Source: a virus (lineage: Duplodnaviria > Heunggongvirae > Uroviricota > Caudoviricetes). Taken from it: a DNA stretch of 11,336 nt. Shown piece by piece: positions 2,320-9,799 of the stretch (position 1 is the stretch's first letter; every line of letters starts with the position of its first letter). The notes below the pieces were generated by a model that did not search any database, was not told the DNA's origin, and saw only the letters and a list, made by a program, of their open reading frames with translations. Both the position numbers and the translations under genes were made by a program. Location of the stretch: the IMG/VR virus record IMGVR_UViG_2541047121_000017. One strand, written 5' to 3'.

Positions 2320-2510
2320 AAAAATCCCCTTGTTCAGCACTAAGCTGTAGTTGCTTCTTTGAAGCATAAAGGCAACAAAGTTTGTTACCTGAAGATGTAT
2401 AAAGTAAAGCGTAGTACATTTTGTGTGTGCTTTGTGTGGATCCAGATTGCATCAACTAAAAGAGGTTTTCAATACTTTTGTAATGATTCTGGAGAAATTA
2501 AGAATCTAAC

Positions 2511-3053
2511 TCACACTGATTGGTTAGGTAAAACGCTCCTAAGCACCATTGCGCAACCACCTCGTTCGTAATCAGCAATGTACTCAAAACCACTTTCAGT
2601 ATAGTATCTTATTGCCCCATCAACTGGACTAACTAAAGCTATCGAATCAATAGATTCACCCTGAAGGTTCAGAAATCGTGCATATGCAGAGAAGCAATCC
2701 AAAACGATACCAAGCATCTGATGGTCTAGGTCTTCATGTGCATCATTACGTTTTTCCATCCAGCAAATATGCACCGCATTTTTCGGCTTACAGTAACACC
2801 CAAATGCAAATCCAATAGGCTCCCCACGATAATAAACAACTAGTTTTATCGGGTGTTCTTCCATCATATCCATAAACACTCGCGACTTTAGTCCGGGATC
2901 CCACCGCAGTTTATTGTTAGCCTTGAGGAACTCCATATCTTTTAGTACCAGCTCGTCGGCATATACGAGCCCTAACGACTTATGAGGGAAGCGCCCTTTT
3001 AAATACTCTGCAACATTTTTAAATACTGCTGTTTGGAAGGCTTGAAACATCAT
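2511..3053 (-). CDS. Hypothetical protein (180 aa), first gene of the low-GC cassette; function unknown
   Basis: Clean 543-nt ORF in a region of lower GC than the flanking prophage genes. Has its own candidate promoter upstream. No transmembrane segments are obvious. The alternating beta-strand-like pattern and C-terminal YYTESGFEY hint weakly at an acyltransferase-like fold, but no GNAT motif A is visible. Confidence 0.6.
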   Translation of the reverse strand: MMFQAFQTAVFKNVAEYLKGRFPHKSLGLVYADELVLKDMEFLKANNKLRWDPGLKSRVFMDMMEEHPIKLVVYYRGEPIGFAFGCYCKPKNAVHICWMEKRNDAHEDLDHQMLGIVLDCFSAYARFLNLQGESIDSIALVSPVDGAIRYYTESGFEYIADYERGGCAMVLRSVLPNQSV

Positions 3054-3080
3054 GTCGATCCAGACGAGACGAAAGTTTAA

Positions 3081-3110
3081 ATTCTACCTACTCGCCGAAT
3101 ACCATTTCAA
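3081..3110 (-). promoter_or_regulatory. Candidate sigma70 promoter for the cassette (-35 TTGAAA, 18-bp spacer, -10 TAGAAT on the minus strand)
   Basis: Read on the minus strand: TTGAAA at 3110-3105 and TAGAAT at 3086-3081. Lies between the upstream terminator and the 180-aa gene start, leaving a leader of about 20-30 nt. Confidence 0.35.
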
Positions 3111-3130
3111 TGCCACACATCTAAAATTCC

Positions 3131-3165
3131 GAAAAAAAACCCGCACATCAGCGGGTTTTCTACTT
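3131..3165. terminator. Bidirectional intrinsic terminator hairpin (7-bp stem aacccgc/gcgggtt, A8 run on one side, T-rich on the other); candidate tR' for the late promoter
   Basis: Inverted repeat at 3138-3157, flanked by gaaaaaaaa upstream and ttctacttttt downstream on the plus strand. On the minus strand it is followed by a U8 tract, about 100 bp downstream of the Q stop. Confidence 0.55.
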
Positions 3166-5855: not shown

Positions 5856-6245
5856 TCAGGCGGCTGCACCCGCCGTTTTCTCGTACTTACTGATAGTGAT
5901 CTCGACCTTCCCTTCCGGGATAACCGGTCCCCACTCCACCAGCATTCTTTTCACCTGACTGTCGTCTTCCCACACACCCGCGTGGGTCAGGGCGTCAAAC
6001 AGCGCCTTGTTATAGTTGTCCAGATCGCGGATCCGGTTATCCGGAGGAAACAACACGATCTCCACTGAAGCAGGTGCCGACGTTGGTTTCGGCAGACGAC
6101 GTAACTGCTCAACTATTGCTGCGCACGCCGCGCTCTGGAATTTTCGCCCCGCCGCGCTTATCAGGCTCTTACCAGCAAACGCCCCTTTGTTGGGGTGTCG
6201 CCAGTACGTGTTCACGCTGGGCGGAAAAGGCAGGATCAGCTTCAT
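5856..6245 (-). CDS. rusA: RusA-family Holliday junction resolvase
   Basis: 129-aa ORF alignable to E. coli RusA (LPFPPSVNTYWRH…; …RDLDNYNKALFDALTHAGVWEDDSQV… vs RusA …[26 protein letters not shown]…). Its start overlaps the upstream stop (ATGA). Confidence 0.9.
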   Translation of the reverse strand: MKLILPFPPSVNTYWRHPNKGAFAGKSLISAAGRKFQSAACAAIVEQLRRLPKPTSAPASVEIVLFPPDNRIRDLDNYNKALFDALTHAGVWEDDSQVKRMLVEWGPVIPEGKVEITISKYEKTAGAAA

Positions 6246-6568
6246 ACTTTCAGGTCCCTCTCATGTAACCAGTGGGTTGCACGCAGCCTTGCGTTTTCCT
6301 CACCGGCAAGCAGTGCGCGGATAATCCCGACCGCCTCGCTGTCGTCGTCCTTCACCGCGATATGAAGCGTTATCCCCCGGGCCACGCCACGCTTTATCGT
6401 GATGACGCCTTTTTTCTCCAGTGCGCGAAGATGCTCCACCGCTGCATTCACTGAACGGTATCCCAGCATGGTTGCCACCTCCTGATTGGTTGGCGGGAAG
6501 CCACGTTCTTTCTGATAAGAAATCAGCATATCCAGCACCTGCTGCTGGCATTGAGTTAACGTCGTCAT
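6242..6568 (-). CDS. LexA N-terminal DNA-binding-domain homologue lacking the S24 peptidase domain (108 aa)
   Basis: Residues ~4-70 align with E. coli LexA 1-70 (LTxxQQxV…G.PPT..E.A..LG.RS.NAA.EHL.AL..KGVI.I..G..RGI.L). The ORF ends soon after a linker (…ALLAGEENA…) with no Ser/Lys catalytic domain. ATGA overlaps at both ends. Confidence 0.8.
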   Translation of the reverse strand: MTTLTQCQQQVLDMLISYQKERGFPPTNQEVATMLGYRSVNAAVEHLRALEKKGVITIKRGVARGITLHIAVKDDDSEAVGIIRALLAGEENARLRATHWLHERDLKV

Positions 6569-7218
6569 GCCGCCATCTCCCTGACCAGTTTTTCTGCCTG
6601 CTGGCGAACCTGCGCCAGAAAGGCCTCACCACATGCCTCAAGTTCATAGCGCCCGATGTAGCTGATTGCCGGTCCCTTCCAGGTCTTGTCGAAAACAGCA
6701 ATAGCACCAGCGAAGAAAGCGCCTGTCGGCACCTGCTTCTCATCCTTCGGGATAAACCAGGCAGGCAGTTCAAAACCAATACGCCCGCGAATAAAAGCAA
6801 TATGATCTGCATCTTCCGGCCACCACACTTCGCTGGTGGCAGCTTTGATCAGGAAAACATAGCGCCCGCCTTTATCACGCATGGCACTGGCATGCTTCAT
6901 GATGTAACGCATGCCGGTGATGTATTGCCCCTCATGCTGACTGGCGCGGCTGTATGGGGGATTACCAAAGGCAGCACCTTTAAGCTCCGCAAGACGTTCT
7001 GACCAGTCATGCGCCAGCGCGTTGTCTTCCGCAGTGTAATAAGCGGCACATTTGGCGTTATCACCGTCAGTGAACAGATCCAGAACAAACGGGCCAAACA
7101 GGGTGTTAATTCCCCAGAAAATGTTGTCCGGCGTGCGCCACTGATCGCCCACTTCCTTCAGTTCATGGGCTGGTTTGTTCCGCAGCTCCACCAGCGCCTG
7201 GCAATATTTATTACTCAT
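6565..7218 (-). CDS. Phage orphan N6-adenine DNA methyltransferase (Dam-like)
   Basis: 217-aa ORF from the ATG at 7216-7218, with catalytic NPPY motif (AFGNPPYS). Start overlaps the upstream stop (TAATG). No adjacent restriction endonuclease. Confidence 0.85.
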   Translation of the reverse strand: MSNKYCQALVELRNKPAHELKEVGDQWRTPDNIFWGINTLFGPFVLDLFTDGDNAKCAAYYTAEDNALAHDWSERLAELKGAAFGNPPYSRASQHEGQYITGMRYIMKHASAMRDKGGRYVFLIKAATSEVWWPEDADHIAFIRGRIGFELPAWFIPKDEKQVPTGAFFAGAIAVFDKTWKGPAISYIGRYELEACGEAFLAQVRQQAEKLVREMAA

Positions 7219-7712
7219 TAAGCCCCCACGTAATTCCCTGACAGATACCACTCTTCACCCGATACAGCGCGCTTGCTGCTTTTCCGTAAGCACCGCTCAC
7301 GACGCGCCAGAAAATTGTTTCGTTCTGGCTGGGAGTGGCTTTCACGGAATGCCGCCATCCACACCGTTGCAGCACGACGGTATAAGCCCCTGGACTCCAG
7401 TTCTTCAGCCTGGCGGGTCAGGCACAAAATCACCCGGGGATCGTTAGTGCCGACATAGAAATTGCGCACAGGTCTGGTTTCACGAACTGGTTGTGGTTCC
7501 GGCTCCTGCGCTCTCTCAGTCAGGCGCGGGAAATGTCTGCGTGTATCCCCTTCACAACGGTGAGCCACACGCCCACTCTGACGTAACTTGCTTGCAGACT
7601 GCAGAACGCGCTGCCGTGAGTAACCTGCAAAAGCATCCGCAATGTCTCCGGAAGTACAGCCCGGATGGGCTTCAATGAATTTCTGAACGTCATTCAAAAG
7701 ACTCATGCTCAC
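7218..7712 (-). CDS. Hypothetical protein with C-terminal PerC-like motif (possible PerC/Pch-family transcriptional activator), 164 aa
   Basis: C-terminal AEELESRGLYRRAATVWMAAF resembles the conserved PerC-family signature as I remember it; the N-terminal ~60 aa looks winged-helix-like. ATGA overlap with the initiator stop supports a real gene. Functional call is tentative. Confidence 0.5.
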   Translation of the reverse strand: MSMSLLNDVQKFIEAHPGCTSGDIADAFAGYSRQRVLQSASKLRQSGRVAHRCEGDTRRHFPRLTERAQEPEPQPVRETRPVRNFYVGTNDPRVILCLTRQAEELESRGLYRRAATVWMAAFRESHSQPERNNFLARRERCLRKSSKRAVSGEEWYLSGNYVGA

Positions 7713-8650
7713 CCCCTGAATCCTGCCGGGATCTGGCTGTAGTCCACGTTGTCGTAACTGGCTTTGAAGTACGGGTCCTCGCGTTTTTCGGTGTACGTGC
7801 TGACGGACGGCGATAAGCGCAGGGAAAGCTCATCCCATTTTTCCCGCAGCTTCGACGGGCTGAGCACGTTACGGCACCAGAACGGATCGCGACTGACGCG
7901 GCTGTACATCTCGCAGATTTGTTTATGAGTACGACCATCCTGCACACACATCAGGCGAATTTCGTTTGCCCAGGCTGTCCAGTTCGGTTCTTTGGGACGA
8001 ACCACCTCGCCGTCACATTCGGCGGCATGCTCGTACAGGGCGATGATTTTTTTCCAGAGCCACTGTGCACAGGTCAAATCATCCTGCGTCCCCCACTGGC
8101 GCTTTTTAGGGCTGAATACAACCGCATCAGGATGGCGAGTTAAAAAATCCTGTTCATCCGTCTGCGTGTCCGGTTGCGAAGCGTCCGGACGAGAAGGTTT
8201 TTTATCTGACGGATCATGTTTTGATTTTACTGACGGATCCCCGCCAGATTCTGACGGGTGAAAACCCGCTTTTTTGCCAGATTTCGACGCATCAAATTTT
8301 GACGGGTCAGATTTTGATGCGTCAGATTTTGACGGGTCAGAATCTGACAGTTGAGAAAATGCCGCTGCCTGAAGCTTCGCAACGTTAAGCTGATAAACAT
8401 TCGACGCATTGCGGTTACCCTGGCGACGCGCCTTACGCGTTAACCAGCCTTCTGCTTCCAGCCGTGCGATAGCCGTTCTGACGGTGCTCATCCCCGCGCC
8501 AATCTGGCGGGCAATGGTTTCAATTGATGGCCAGCACACACCTTCGTCATTACTGAAATCAGCCAGGCGGGCCATAATTGCCACGCTGGATAACTTCATG
8601 CCTGACGCAGCGCAACCATCCCATACATAGCCGGTTAATTTAGTGCTCAT
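7709..8650 (-). CDS. Replication initiator (lambda O-like organisation: N-terminal HTH domain, iteron-encoded repetitive linker, C-terminal domain)
   Basis: 313-aa ORF. N-terminus has an HTH (…SVAIMARLADFSNDEGVCWPSIETIARQIGAGMSTVRTAIARLEAEGWL…). The central region (SDPSKSDASKSDPSKFDASKS) is encoded by tandem DNA repeats. Positioned after the cII-like gene. Confidence 0.7.
   Translation of the reverse strand: MSTKLTGYVWDGCAASGMKLSSVAIMARLADFSNDEGVCWPSIETIARQIGAGMSTVRTAIARLEAEGWLTRKARRQGNRNASNVYQLNVAKLQAAAFSQLSDSDPSKSDASKSDPSKFDASKSGKKAGFHPSESGGDPSVKSKHDPSDKKPSRPDASQPDTQTDEQDFLTRHPDAVVFSPKKRQWGTQDDLTCAQWLWKKIIALYEHAAECDGEVVRPKEPNWTAWANEIRLMCVQDGRTHKQICEMYSRVSRDPFWCRNVLSPSKLREKWDELSLRLSPSVSTYTEKREDPYFKASYDNVDYSQIPAGFRG
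8203..8355. repeat. Iteron-like tandem array (about 15-bp units, consensus near GATTTTGACGGGTCA); candidate phage origin inside the initiator gene
   Basis: At least seven imperfect direct repeats with core TGACGG / GACGGG / GATGCG at roughly 15-bp spacing between 8203 and 8355. This is analogous to ori-lambda inside gene O. Confidence 0.6.
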
Positions 8651-8659
8651 GACCGACCT

Positions 8660-8998
8660 CTATTTCCCTGAATTTACGACGAAACTGTTCGAGCGGGCTG
8701 AAGCACTCATGCTCATAGCCTTCGCGGAGGTAGATAACCCGTTGTGTTTCCGGTTCCCAACGAATGACTCTGACGGGCACTCCGTAGTGATCTTTGAACC
8801 AGCGGTTAACTTGTCGCAAAGGACTGTCTCCTTTTGCCTGTTGAAATCACCCACAGCCCACTCTGCAAAGCTGTGGGTTACAATTTCCCTGTCACCTGGT
8901 ACATTCACTGCATAGCAATACTCCACCTTCGCTTTTCCACCCGGTACAGGAAGTGCAATCAGTTGCGAGCGACGGTAGTGTGTTGTTAAACTGTTCAT
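8660..8998 (-). CDS. Hypothetical protein (112 aa) between the cII-like and initiator genes
   Basis: ORF start overlaps the cII-like stop (ATGA) and ends 9 nt before the initiator ATG, fitting operon packing. The C-terminus is low-complexity ([17 protein letters not shown]) and a 9-bp-stem hairpin lies inside, so coding status is uncertain. Confidence 0.4.
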
Positions 8999-9546
8999 GC
9001 GTTAGTTTCTCCACAGTCACGACACGCCACGGCGCCCGGAGCTGCACACTCGCGGGCGTCATTACTTTCTGAAATGCAAAAAATTTTGTAGACCAGTGCT
9101 GCATGCTCCTGCAGCTTCGAAATTGAGAGGTACAGCTCGTCGTTAATTGCTGTCTTCTCATGCGGTTCCACTACACCGTCTTCAATTGCTGAACGAATCT
9201 GTTTTGAATAACTGCCGATCTGTTCAATGACCTCCAGCAGGCGTTGGTTGATATCGGCGTTGTCCACATCCTCGACATCAGGAAGAGACACAAAGACGCC
9301 ATTTGCAGACTGCGCCACAGCGTCAGCAATGAAGTGAGTTCCACCAGCACGTTGCAAAATCATTGCCCATCCCAGCGGGAAAATCTGATCGCCATCGGCA
9401 CGAAGGCGGTTAAATAATGCGTTCTCTGTTACATCCAGCCAGTCAGCAGCTTCAGCGTACCCCCCCGGCAACGCTGCGATAGTTTTTCTGACAGCTTTCA
9501 CGTACCACTCAGGCTGTTTTTCTACTTTCCAGTGATGCTTACCCAC
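8995..9546 (-). CDS. CII-like early regulatory protein (CP76/YdaT-like family), 183 aa
   Basis: GTG start at 9544-9546 with a near-perfect Shine-Dalgarno motif (AGGAGGTGA) 5 nt upstream. Sits immediately after the cro-like gene. Family assignment is by synteny and general resemblance, not a verified alignment. Confidence 0.6.
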
Positions 9547-9799
9547 GGTTCACCTCCTGTTCCTGTGGTTTAAACCCATTCTGGTTTTGGCTAGATTGAA
9601 AACGTGCCGGATAAAGAATCTGCATTTCGCTGACTTCACCCTTAAAAAAATTGGCTAAACGTTCTGCAAGCTCGATAGATGGAATCTGCTCCAGCCTCTC
9701 AATACGACTCAACGTCGCTGGATTGACTTGAACACCCGCAGCAACATGCTGCAAAGTGAAACCATGCGCCTTACGCACATTTCGTAATGGTGATTGCAT
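9539..9799 (-). CDS. cro: Cro-like HTH (XRE-family) regulator, 86 aa
   Basis: HTH signature (RKAHGFTLQHVAAGVQVNPATLSRIERLEQIPS…). Transcribed divergently from the cI-like gene, with a GGAGG Shine-Dalgarno motif 4 nt upstream of the ATG. Confidence 0.75.
   Translation of the reverse strand: MQSPLRNVRKAHGFTLQHVAAGVQVNPATLSRIERLEQIPSIELAERLANFFKGEVSEMQILYPARFQSSQNQNGFKPQEQEVNRG

Follow-up and report, generated by a model that had tools for sequence, protein, structure and literature searches.

The open reading frame (ORF) analysed here, 112 codons at positions 8660-8998 on the minus strand of a caudoviral sequence of 11,336 nucleotides (nt) (IMG/VR record IMGVR_UViG_2541047121_000017; the whole stretch is referred to as the window), has its closest described relative in ymfM (b1148) of the e14 prophage of Escherichia coli K-12, labelled "cell division inhibitor YmfM" in the reference record NC_000913.3. 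Arabinose induction of the cloned ymfM ORF abolished Z rings and caused filamentation independently of SulA, SlmA and MinC, expression of the neighbouring ymfL was without this effect, and the filamentation that recA441 induces in a sulA background was lower once ymfM was deleted (Ansari et al., bioRxiv 10.1101/2020.11.19.390815). The same region of K-12 is also transcribed in the opposite direction. The most abundant cis-antisense candidate of Shinhara et al. 2011 (PMC3175480) is ECS003, whose 5′ end is at CAUGCG; its reads spanned 116 nt and its northern band was ~70 nt in size. A sigma-70 promoter was predicted for it, and it was reported to be antisense to both ymfL and the ribosome-binding site of ymfM. 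A third described system is RgdR (ECs1581), the sole characterised member of the DUF4222 family, which is a 99-amino-acid (aa) prophage regulator that activates LEE1 and the type III secretion system, represses motility and binds DNA non-specifically (PMC3378721). Here, we compare the locus in the window with these systems and describe how elements related to all three of them are combined in it.

The product of the ORF is identical to K-12 e14 YmfM in 109 of 112 residues, the three differences all being situated in the C-terminal half, and the DNA of the window is 96-100% identical to chromosomal ymfM loci of E. coli. A segment of 451 base pairs (bp) spanning the ORF was matched in 2606 of 5426 complete E. 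coli genomes, with 92 records at 99% identity or more. The ORF is ymfM, a known gene of a very common E. coli prophage module. An earlier note, made from the letters of the window without database searches, had taken it for an unassigned gene and possibly a novel small regulator, and this reading gives way to that of a commonplace, widely distributed E. coli prophage gene whose function has been published. With a probability of about 80% the interval represents ymfM in a lambdoid E. coli prophage of the e14/CPS-53 type, and three functional elements are superimposed there: ymfM, a DUF4222 gene nested within its 3′ half in another frame of the same strand, and a short antisense RNA across its start. 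Each of these elements is singly on record already. What appears to be undescribed in the searched literature is the overlap of ymfM and DUF4222 with both genes maintained, the confounded attribution of the division-inhibition phenotype SfiC, and ECS003 as a conserved analogue of the lambda oop RNA backed by covariation; nothing joining ymfM to ribosome profiling, or e14 to oop, was found in that literature.

The two major annotation systems wholly disagree on the ~360 bp in question. The K-12 reference has ymfM alone, as against RefSeq and its Prokaryotic Genome Annotation Pipeline (PGAP), in which the DUF4222 protein WP_001250269.1, identical in K-12, is the single coding sequence (CDS) and positions 8820-8994 are left blank. 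Phage records differ among themselves as well. Two of them have an antisense ORF annotated (L089, 1635-1922, and L124, 735-1022, both on the minus strand) which we regard as a shadow of the DUF4222 frame, two have nothing annotated (L122 and L125) and two have an ORF of 111 aa (L090 and L123). On the comparative evidence presented below, both sense-strand ORFs are maintained.

The coding capacity of ymfM was assessed from polymorphisms in 33 distinct close haplotypes drawn from 86 loci. Variable sites in ymfM codons 1-59 were distributed 1/1/11 over the three codon positions, with 14 synonymous changes and one non-synonymous change. As judged from these haplotypes, the N-terminal ~60 codons of ymfM are under clear purifying selection, and it follows that ymfM encodes a protein. 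The protein alignment displays a motif ending in ...FAEWAVGD in this N-domain which is kept in homologues down to 38-46% identity; the tail is hypervariable. The N-domain is also found as stand-alone genes of 59-78 aa with no DUF4222 gene after them, in Providencia phage PSTRCR_117lys, Hafnia phage yong2, Citrobacter phage phiNP, Entomohabitans and Atlantibacter. A phmmer search with the N-domain yielded 56 representatives in 1.84 billion proteins, all of them from enterobacterial elements save for weak matches to repeat proteins. The AlphaFold2 (AF2) model suggests a beta-beta-beta-alpha-alpha layout for the N-domain with weak confidence (predicted local distance difference test, pLDDT, 55-69) and a disordered tail for residues 68-112 (pLDDT below 50). 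The C-terminal half is rich in serine, threonine and alanine and of low complexity, which had raised suspicion from the outset, and this composition is explained by the tail being an out-of-frame reading of the nested DUF4222 gene, which lies in the −1 (+2) frame.

This second frame on the same strand was missed in the earlier note. Residues 2-53 of its product correspond to positions 3-52 of the 53-position Pfam model PF13973, at an E-value of 8.6e-19 and 67.3 bits versus a cutoff of 27. The gene begins with a TTG codon at 8817-8819 and ends with TAA at 8640-8642, overlapping the initiator gene by 11 nt. Within the overlap the polymorphisms were distributed 2/1/7 by DUF4222 codon position, and 8 of 11 changes were silent for DUF4222 yet non-synonymous in ymfM. 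These patterns of substitution indicate that the whole of DUF4222 is under purifying selection and that the amino acid sequence of the YmfM tail is unconstrained. The comparison of synonymous and non-synonymous change in relatives, which had been proposed as a check, accordingly finds the N-terminal part of ymfM and DUF4222 constrained and the sequence of the YmfM tail not. All divergent loci, ranging from 38 to 98% in aa identity, keep a TTG, ATG or GTG start for DUF4222, and a GGAG/GAGG-like motif is present 5-9 nt ahead of it in all of them. In phiNP-type phages, un-nested DUF4222 genes are located directly upstream of the replication gene, and the distribution of the two modules shows that the N-domain and DUF4222 are separable.

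The AF2 model of the DUF4222 protein (pLDDT 84) is an SH3/Tudor-like barrel. Similar to RgdR, the nested protein is small, basic and prophage-borne; in contrast to it, RgdR is encoded in OI-51, a P4-like island, and has an RGD motif, which is absent from the nested protein of 59 aa. Searches of the PDB by sequence with the YmfM and DUF4222 proteins gave nothing significant, NCBIfam holds no model for either product and Pfam none for that of 112 aa. The arrangement resembles that of lambda Rz/Rz1, a pair in which an ORF with start signals of its own is likewise embedded almost completely, in a different frame, in a longer one of the same strand. Unlike in Rz/Rz1, the embedded gene alone is constrained in its amino acids in the ymfM/DUF4222 overlap, the outer frame merely being kept open.

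The openness of the outer frame was compared in 17 nested loci from E. coli, Phytobacter, Klebsiella phages, Pantoea phage AH07 and several metagenomic lineages; a scan of genome contigs had yielded only six loci. The DUF4222 proteins of the nested loci are 38-98% identical to that of the window, and at least 8-9 well-diverged lineages are represented. The DUF4222 start is situated 176-182 nt past the ymfM ATG with the relative frame constant, and over DUF4222 the ymfM frame holds no stop in any of the 17 loci, giving runs of 111-117 codons. Where codons are conserved, the third positions of different lineages are identical in a fraction of only ~0.4-0.6, which means that turnover at synonymous sites has been extensive. 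Resampling of synonymous codons according to E. coli usage gave a chance of an open frame of 0.03-0.16 per sequence. In neighbouring genes, the same type of off-frame shows stops at a rate of 0.035 per codon, corresponding to a chance of ~0.15 of being open over 54 codons. The third sense frame contains 2-12 stops in every nested locus, and in the control set of 16 non-nested DUF4222 genes of the phiNP type the equivalent frame contains 1-7 stops in 15. Codon choice in the window conforms to this pattern, with valine encoded by GTT or GTC in DUF4222 wherever the following codon starts with A, where GTG would give TGA, and by GTG before C.

On this evidence, avoidance of stops in the ymfM frame is, with good confidence, real. 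The frame-A (ymfM) stop never lies more than 15 nt ahead of the initiator start codon or more than 8 nt beyond the first base of that codon, and translational coupling along ymfL, ymfM and the initiator gene is therefore favoured as the explanation. We infer by preference that the open tail frame serves such coupling, while a role of its own for the disordered YmfM tail is the alternative and equally possible. The sequences of divergent relatives thus suggest that both frames of the ymfM/DUF4222 pair are under selection, frame B (DUF4222) through its amino acids and frame A through stop avoidance only.

The third element is the antisense RNA. Positions 8996-9106 on the plus strand of the window are collinear with ECS003 but for an indel of 6 nt, and this collinearity points to a discrete short transcript in the window too, which would be complementary to the ymfM start codon and Shine-Dalgarno (SD) sequence and to the last ~70 nt of ymfL. 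The indel relative to K-12 (locus L002) is in frame in the C-terminus of ymfL (9010-9030) and falls within the single-stranded 5′ part of the RNA. The putative promoter consists of a −35 element TTGCGA (8963-8968) and an extended −10 element TGtTAAACT (8984-8992), both nearly invariant in 18 loci; among these, which include Providencia, Hafnia and Pantoea phages, TTGC of the −35 element and positions 1, 2 and 6 (T, A, T) of the −10 element are invariant. These elements are reflected in the codons of ymfM, since codon 4, which supplies the TA of the −10 element, is without exception one of the rare NTA codons, TTA being used in 17 of 19 loci, and codon 12, which supplies the TTG of the −35 element, is always CAA and never CAG.

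The intrinsic terminator is supported by covariation. Its stem of 10 pairs is paired in 170 of 170 cells over 17 distinct sequences, with compensatory changes in six of the pairs, and none of 500 shuffles equalled this, slid controls being paired in 35-53%. All 10 G-U cells pair on the plus-strand RNA only, and the T-rich tail is conserved. A generic scan for promoters and terminators returned two matches, at 9389 and 8773, which are at chance level, and missed both this terminator and the antisense promoter, its criteria (loop of 8 nt at most, five T in eight) being too strict. No LexA box was recognised by eye near the promoter, the CTGT...ACAG spacing there being 18 nt and not 8. Rfam gave no match for 8400-9400 at E-values up to 10, and blastn against the lambda region returned nothing beyond chance words of 7-9 nt.

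In the oop/pO architecture of lambda, established by Krinke and Wulff, a short antisense RNA of ~75 nt overlaps the 3′ end of cII; oop is unannotated in the lambda record used for comparison. The RNA predicted for the window shares several traits with it: it would start just past a gene of the CII type and overlap the 3′ end of that gene, with an intrinsic terminator inside it, it would be located between that gene and the replication gene, and it would be a transcript of the constitutive type. It differs from oop in that its promoter lies within a coding gene, ymfM, and not in an intergenic spacer, and in covering the start and SD of the next gene, whereby it could act on ymfM in the manner of a type I antitoxin. 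By these likenesses the RNA is a positional and a putative functional analogue of lambda oop and not a homologue. Support at the level of covariation is hereby provided for a conserved oop analogue across enterobacterial lambdoid phages which overlaps the start of a toxic gene. The oop-like antisense RNA which the earlier note had suggested in place of the ORF exists in K-12 as ECS003 and, judging from collinearity and the conserved promoter and terminator, probably in the window too, but it does not replace the ORF. Nor does it account for the conservation of the ORF as a whole; the RNA runs out of the interval and only the promoter is located inside.

Other explanations of the interval have been considered. 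If DUF4222 alone were real, the 112-aa ORF would be open by chance and 8820-8994 would be an untranslated spacer or a regulatory region, in agreement with the annotation of that single CDS by PGAP, with the second half of ymfM being free of amino acid constraint and with the 112-aa product having no match in Pfam or NCBIfam. We find this very unlikely in view of the synonymous excess in codons 1-59, the conserved ATGA coupling and SD of ymfM, the annotated stand-alone N-domain genes of phages that lack DUF4222 and the frame being stop-free in every nested locus. The converse, with ymfM alone being real and DUF4222 an accidental internal frame, conforms to NC_000913.3 and to the many gene callers that choose the long ORF, but the Pfam match far over threshold, the substitutions that are silent in DUF4222 and not in ymfM, the start and SD that are conserved while the YmfM tail varies, and the confident AF2 model leave it hardly credible; the family is moreover free-standing upstream of replication genes elsewhere and includes a regulator, RgdR. 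We attach even less credence to programmed −1 frameshifting that would join the frames into a fusion of N-domain and DUF4222. DUF4222 is indeed in the −1 frame of ymfM, a strong hairpin and a lysine codon in the context CAA_AAG are close by, and rare fusion proteins are found in databases (P0030, P0053, P0060 and P0065). However, a frame-B TGA directly follows the hairpin, 11 codons before the TTG, by which the hairpin is placed upstream and not downstream of any usable slip site. The open stretch contains no X_XXY_YYZ heptamer, the CAAAAGGAG stretch is unconserved in divergent loci, DUF4222 has its own SD and start everywhere, and the fusion proteins are few, from single assemblies and with junctions that are all different, which fits indels or errors. 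The fusion was rejected on the grounds of the frame-B stop, the missing heptamer and the SD and start of DUF4222 itself.

It may also be considered that only the N-domain and DUF4222 matter and that the ymfM tail is passive read-through, open by chance or by codon composition. The sequence of the tail, unconstrained and predicted to be disordered, is compatible with this, as are stand-alone N-domains having tails of 0-15 residues, the fairly high open probabilities given by synonymous permutation within the gene (0.03-1.0) and the open frames of two loci outside the nested arrangement (L094 of Hafnia phage yong2 and the non-nested L113). We nevertheless consider it unlikely, as the frame is open in 17 of 17 nested loci versus 1 of 16 phiNP-type non-nested ones, the empirical expectation of ~0.15 applies to each of the well-diverged lineages, and the choice of valine codons follows the base that comes after them. 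Finally, the region could be one of antisense RNA (oop/pO) or of the plus-strand ORF of 90 aa rather than of sense-strand proteins. The conserved promoter in ymfM codons 1-12, the antisense RNA detected in K-12 and the plus-strand ORF, which is open in 33 of 33 haplotypes and annotated in some phage records, speak for this. Against it, the RNA is directed out of the interval (8996 to ~9070) and overlaps just the start of ymfM, purifying selection in the sense frames is clear, Rfam is empty for the region, and over DUF4222 the plus-strand ORF has 12 non-synonymous changes to 1 synonymous, and is a codon-register shadow; very little credit can be given to this explanation.

Several points weigh against the reading of three superimposed elements. 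The window is known from its sequence alone, and the expression evidence comes from the K-12 orthologue. PGAP makes no ymfM call, and the AF2 model of YmfM has a mean pLDDT of 52 and is too poor for a fold search. The nested lineages are related and some of them were retrieved via long-ORF gene calls, which makes their independence imperfect, and the two open off-frames outside the nested arrangement have to be counted here as well. The antisense promoter is a weak match to the consensus and was missed by the generic scan, and the regulatory effect of the RNA proposed below is drawn by analogy. Furthermore, the published functional data do not concern ymfM in isolation. The pBAD24-ymfM clone holds the SD and TTG of DUF4222 together with codons 1-53 of 59, which comprise the whole Pfam domain, and the published ymfM deletion also takes out the SD, the start and those codons. 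The preprint mentions no control by truncation, frameshift, stop codon or tagging (bioRxiv 10.1101/2020.11.19.390815).

The clones of the earlier screen bore both ORFs too. Since clone and deletion affect both genes, the published data do not separate YmfM from DUF4222 as the inhibitor, and the attribution of the 40-year-old SfiC phenotype to YmfM is made ambiguous by the overlap. We lean towards the N-domain of YmfM as the division inhibitor, because it is a small early-region protein and because over-expression of RgdR is not reported to cause filamentation. That DUF4222 is the inhibitor is rather unlikely, and an effect of both products is less likely again. A doubtful proposition is that of a conserved dual-coding locus in which the SfiC phenotype derives wholly or partly from the Tudor-like DUF4222 protein, the tail is kept open by selection, either to couple translation to the initiator or for a function of its disordered sequence, and the oop-like RNA is an antitoxin-like brake. 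The published effect of K-12 YmfM is reminiscent of lambda Kil, Rac KilR and Qin DicB, which likewise are small early-region proteins of lambdoid prophages causing filamentation. No sequence relationship to YmfM was found for these proteins, and the effect of K-12 YmfM is independent of MinC, SlmA and SulA.

One may propose the following sequence of events. Translation of ymfM would start from the ATG that is coupled to the ymfL stop, the N-domain of ~60 aa being the functional core and, judging from the K-12 orthologue, most likely the SOS-inducible, SulA-independent Z-ring inhibitor SfiC/YmfM. DUF4222 would be initiated independently in the 3′ half of ymfM and end just inside the initiator gene. 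The stop-free tail would let ribosomes initiated at ymfM reach within a few nt of the initiator start, which is the explanation we prefer for it. If the analogy to oop of lambda holds, the antisense RNA most likely pairs with the early-right mRNA and lowers the expression of the CII-like ymfL. In a further role, which oop does not have, it would prevent leaky translation of ymfM, a toxic gene, in the lysogenic state. In sequences of the E. coli lineage, AAGGAG and TTG of DUF4222 can pair in a small hairpin at 8815-8838 on the minus strand (GCAAAAGGAGACAGUCCUUUGC), and initiation of DUF4222 could depend on ribosomes translating ymfM through it.

The coordinates of the features are given in Table 1. 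The ORF is present as the earlier note had described it. It is on the minus strand with an ATG start and is packed like a real gene: its ATG shares ATGA with the stop of the CII-like ymfL, the SD and ATGA coupling being conserved, and its stop codon TAG precedes the initiator ATG (8650) by 9 nt with GAGG/AGGT in the gap. The genes around the ORF are all on the minus strand of the window, and the place of ymfM in the early-right operon, after ymfL and ahead of the replication initiator, is the same as in K-12. As in the window, K-12 e14 ymfM is ATGA-coupled and contains a nested DUF4222 ORF. Downstream, K-12 e14 has the chimeric ymfN in contrast to the intact initiator of 313 aa in the window, and the window differs further in being a mosaic prophage with yfdR and yfdN/PerC-like neighbours, from which it follows that it is a CPS-53/e14 mosaic and not e14 itself.

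Table 1. Features at and around the ymfM locus, with positions in the window.
Feature	Position	Strand	Basis or remark
Cro-type helix-turn-helix (HTH) gene	9539-9799	−	first in transcription order
ymfL, CII-like, 183 aa	8995-9546	−	Pfam Phage_CP76 and NCBIfam YmfL equivalog
ymfM ORF, 112 aa, frame A, ATG start	8660-8998	−	phrog_1170
ymfM N-domain, constrained, ~60 aa	8820-8998	−	purifying selection, homologues, phrog_20047 (63-aa family)
YmfM tail, residues ~61-112	8660-8819	−	out of frame over DUF4222; stop-free, sequence unconstrained
DUF4222 gene, 59 aa, frame B (frame A +2/−1)	8640-8819	−	Pfam PF13973
DUF4222 SD, AAGGAG	8828-8833	−	8 nt ahead of TTG, read from sequence
Hairpin, 9 perfect bp	8849-8857 / 8870-8878	−	ymfM codons 41-50; 15 nt upstream of DUF4222 SD
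Replication initiator, O-like, 313 aa	7709-8650	−	HTH_36, phrog_391; internal iterons
Predicted antisense RNA, ~73-75 nt	~8996-9070	+	K-12 orthologue ECS003; collinearity
Putative pO-like promoter	8963-8992	+	within ymfM codons 1-12; 18-nt spacer
Predicted intrinsic-terminator hairpin of antisense RNA	9031-9060	+	in ymfL 3′ end; ATTACTTTCT at 9061-9070
Antisense ORF, 90 aa, GTG start	8643-8915	+	shadow ORF, in codon register with DUF4222

The hairpin inside ymfM, which had been placed at 8848-8877, is real as a perfect 9-bp repeat, its true position being one base off. On the mRNA strand G-U pairs extend it to an interrupted stem of 17 bp (8842-8885) with a free energy of −22.8 kcal/mol and a z-score of −5.0, the values for the plus strand being −15.1 kcal/mol and −3.0. 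It must be noted that the window of 11 kb holds 13 inverted repeats of at least 9 bp with arms within 40 nt, ~6 of them non-palindromic hairpins, so that an inverted repeat of 9 bp is not unusual by itself. A core of 5 bp is paired in 12 of 12 divergent sequences and the outer pairs are often broken. Two core pairs covary (CG to UA in one; GU, CG or AU in the other), two U-G pairs are specific to the mRNA strand, and 78% of cells are paired in the 12 divergent loci versus 34-55% in slid controls; the covarying sequences are roughly one clade, the peptide motif encoded by the arms is the most conserved one, and the structure was defined on the window. A partly conserved mRNA element is plausible but unproven. 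The hairpin was rejected as a terminator, no U tract following it on either strand, and as a stimulator of frameshifting, being upstream of any usable slip site.

The opposite-strand ORF of 90 aa pointed out previously exists, with a GTG start, but is a shadow ORF and not a gene. It is open because only the rare DUF4222 sense codons TTA, CTA and TCA would close it, and Pfam gave no match for its product. As a gene it was rejected on its codon register and the ratio of 12 to 1 given above.

Some observations on relatives may be added. The weak repeat-protein matches of the N-domain involve YmfM residues 19-50 (8849-8944, minus strand), which phmmer aligned in multiple stretches to large proteins of the Listeria-Bacteroides repeat type (Flg_new); in P0215, a protein of this type, 13 stretches match these residues. 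The N-domain may be a distant relative of the Flg_new repeat fold, and Flg_new was not reported in the Pfam search of YmfM. In L104, P0077 and P0089, highly divergent or different N-modules (MNSVNRFRPAKQFRCLP...) continue, with the frame unchanged, into the tail that overlaps DUF4222, which indicates a mosaic recombination joint between the N-domain and DUF4222 modules. In Hafnia phage yong2 (L094) an unannotated DUF4222 ORF at 2471-2677 lies inside the 5′ end of a CDS annotated as 'Ash family protein' (2496-3159), and this may be a second independent case of nesting or a mis-called Ash start. The IMG/VR contig L113 (701-874) has the sole stop-free A-type off-frame among 15 IMG/VR loci of the phiNP type, and this off-frame is open for another 22 codons upstream.

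The initiator gene of the window contains an iteron-like array at 8230-8340, made up of GATTTTGACGGGTCA and variants, in which an inverted pair of 18 nt is present (8286-8303 / 8306-8323). The array probably marks the origin of replication, which would lie within the O-like gene as it does in lambda. On the 3′ side of the initiator gene, genes for a PerC-family, yfdN-like regulator (7218-7712), an N6-adenine methyltransferase (6565-7251), a LexA-family protein (6242-6568) and RusA (5856-6245) follow on the minus strand. In the matched E. coli locus L001, yfdR is located at the far end, across the immunity region.

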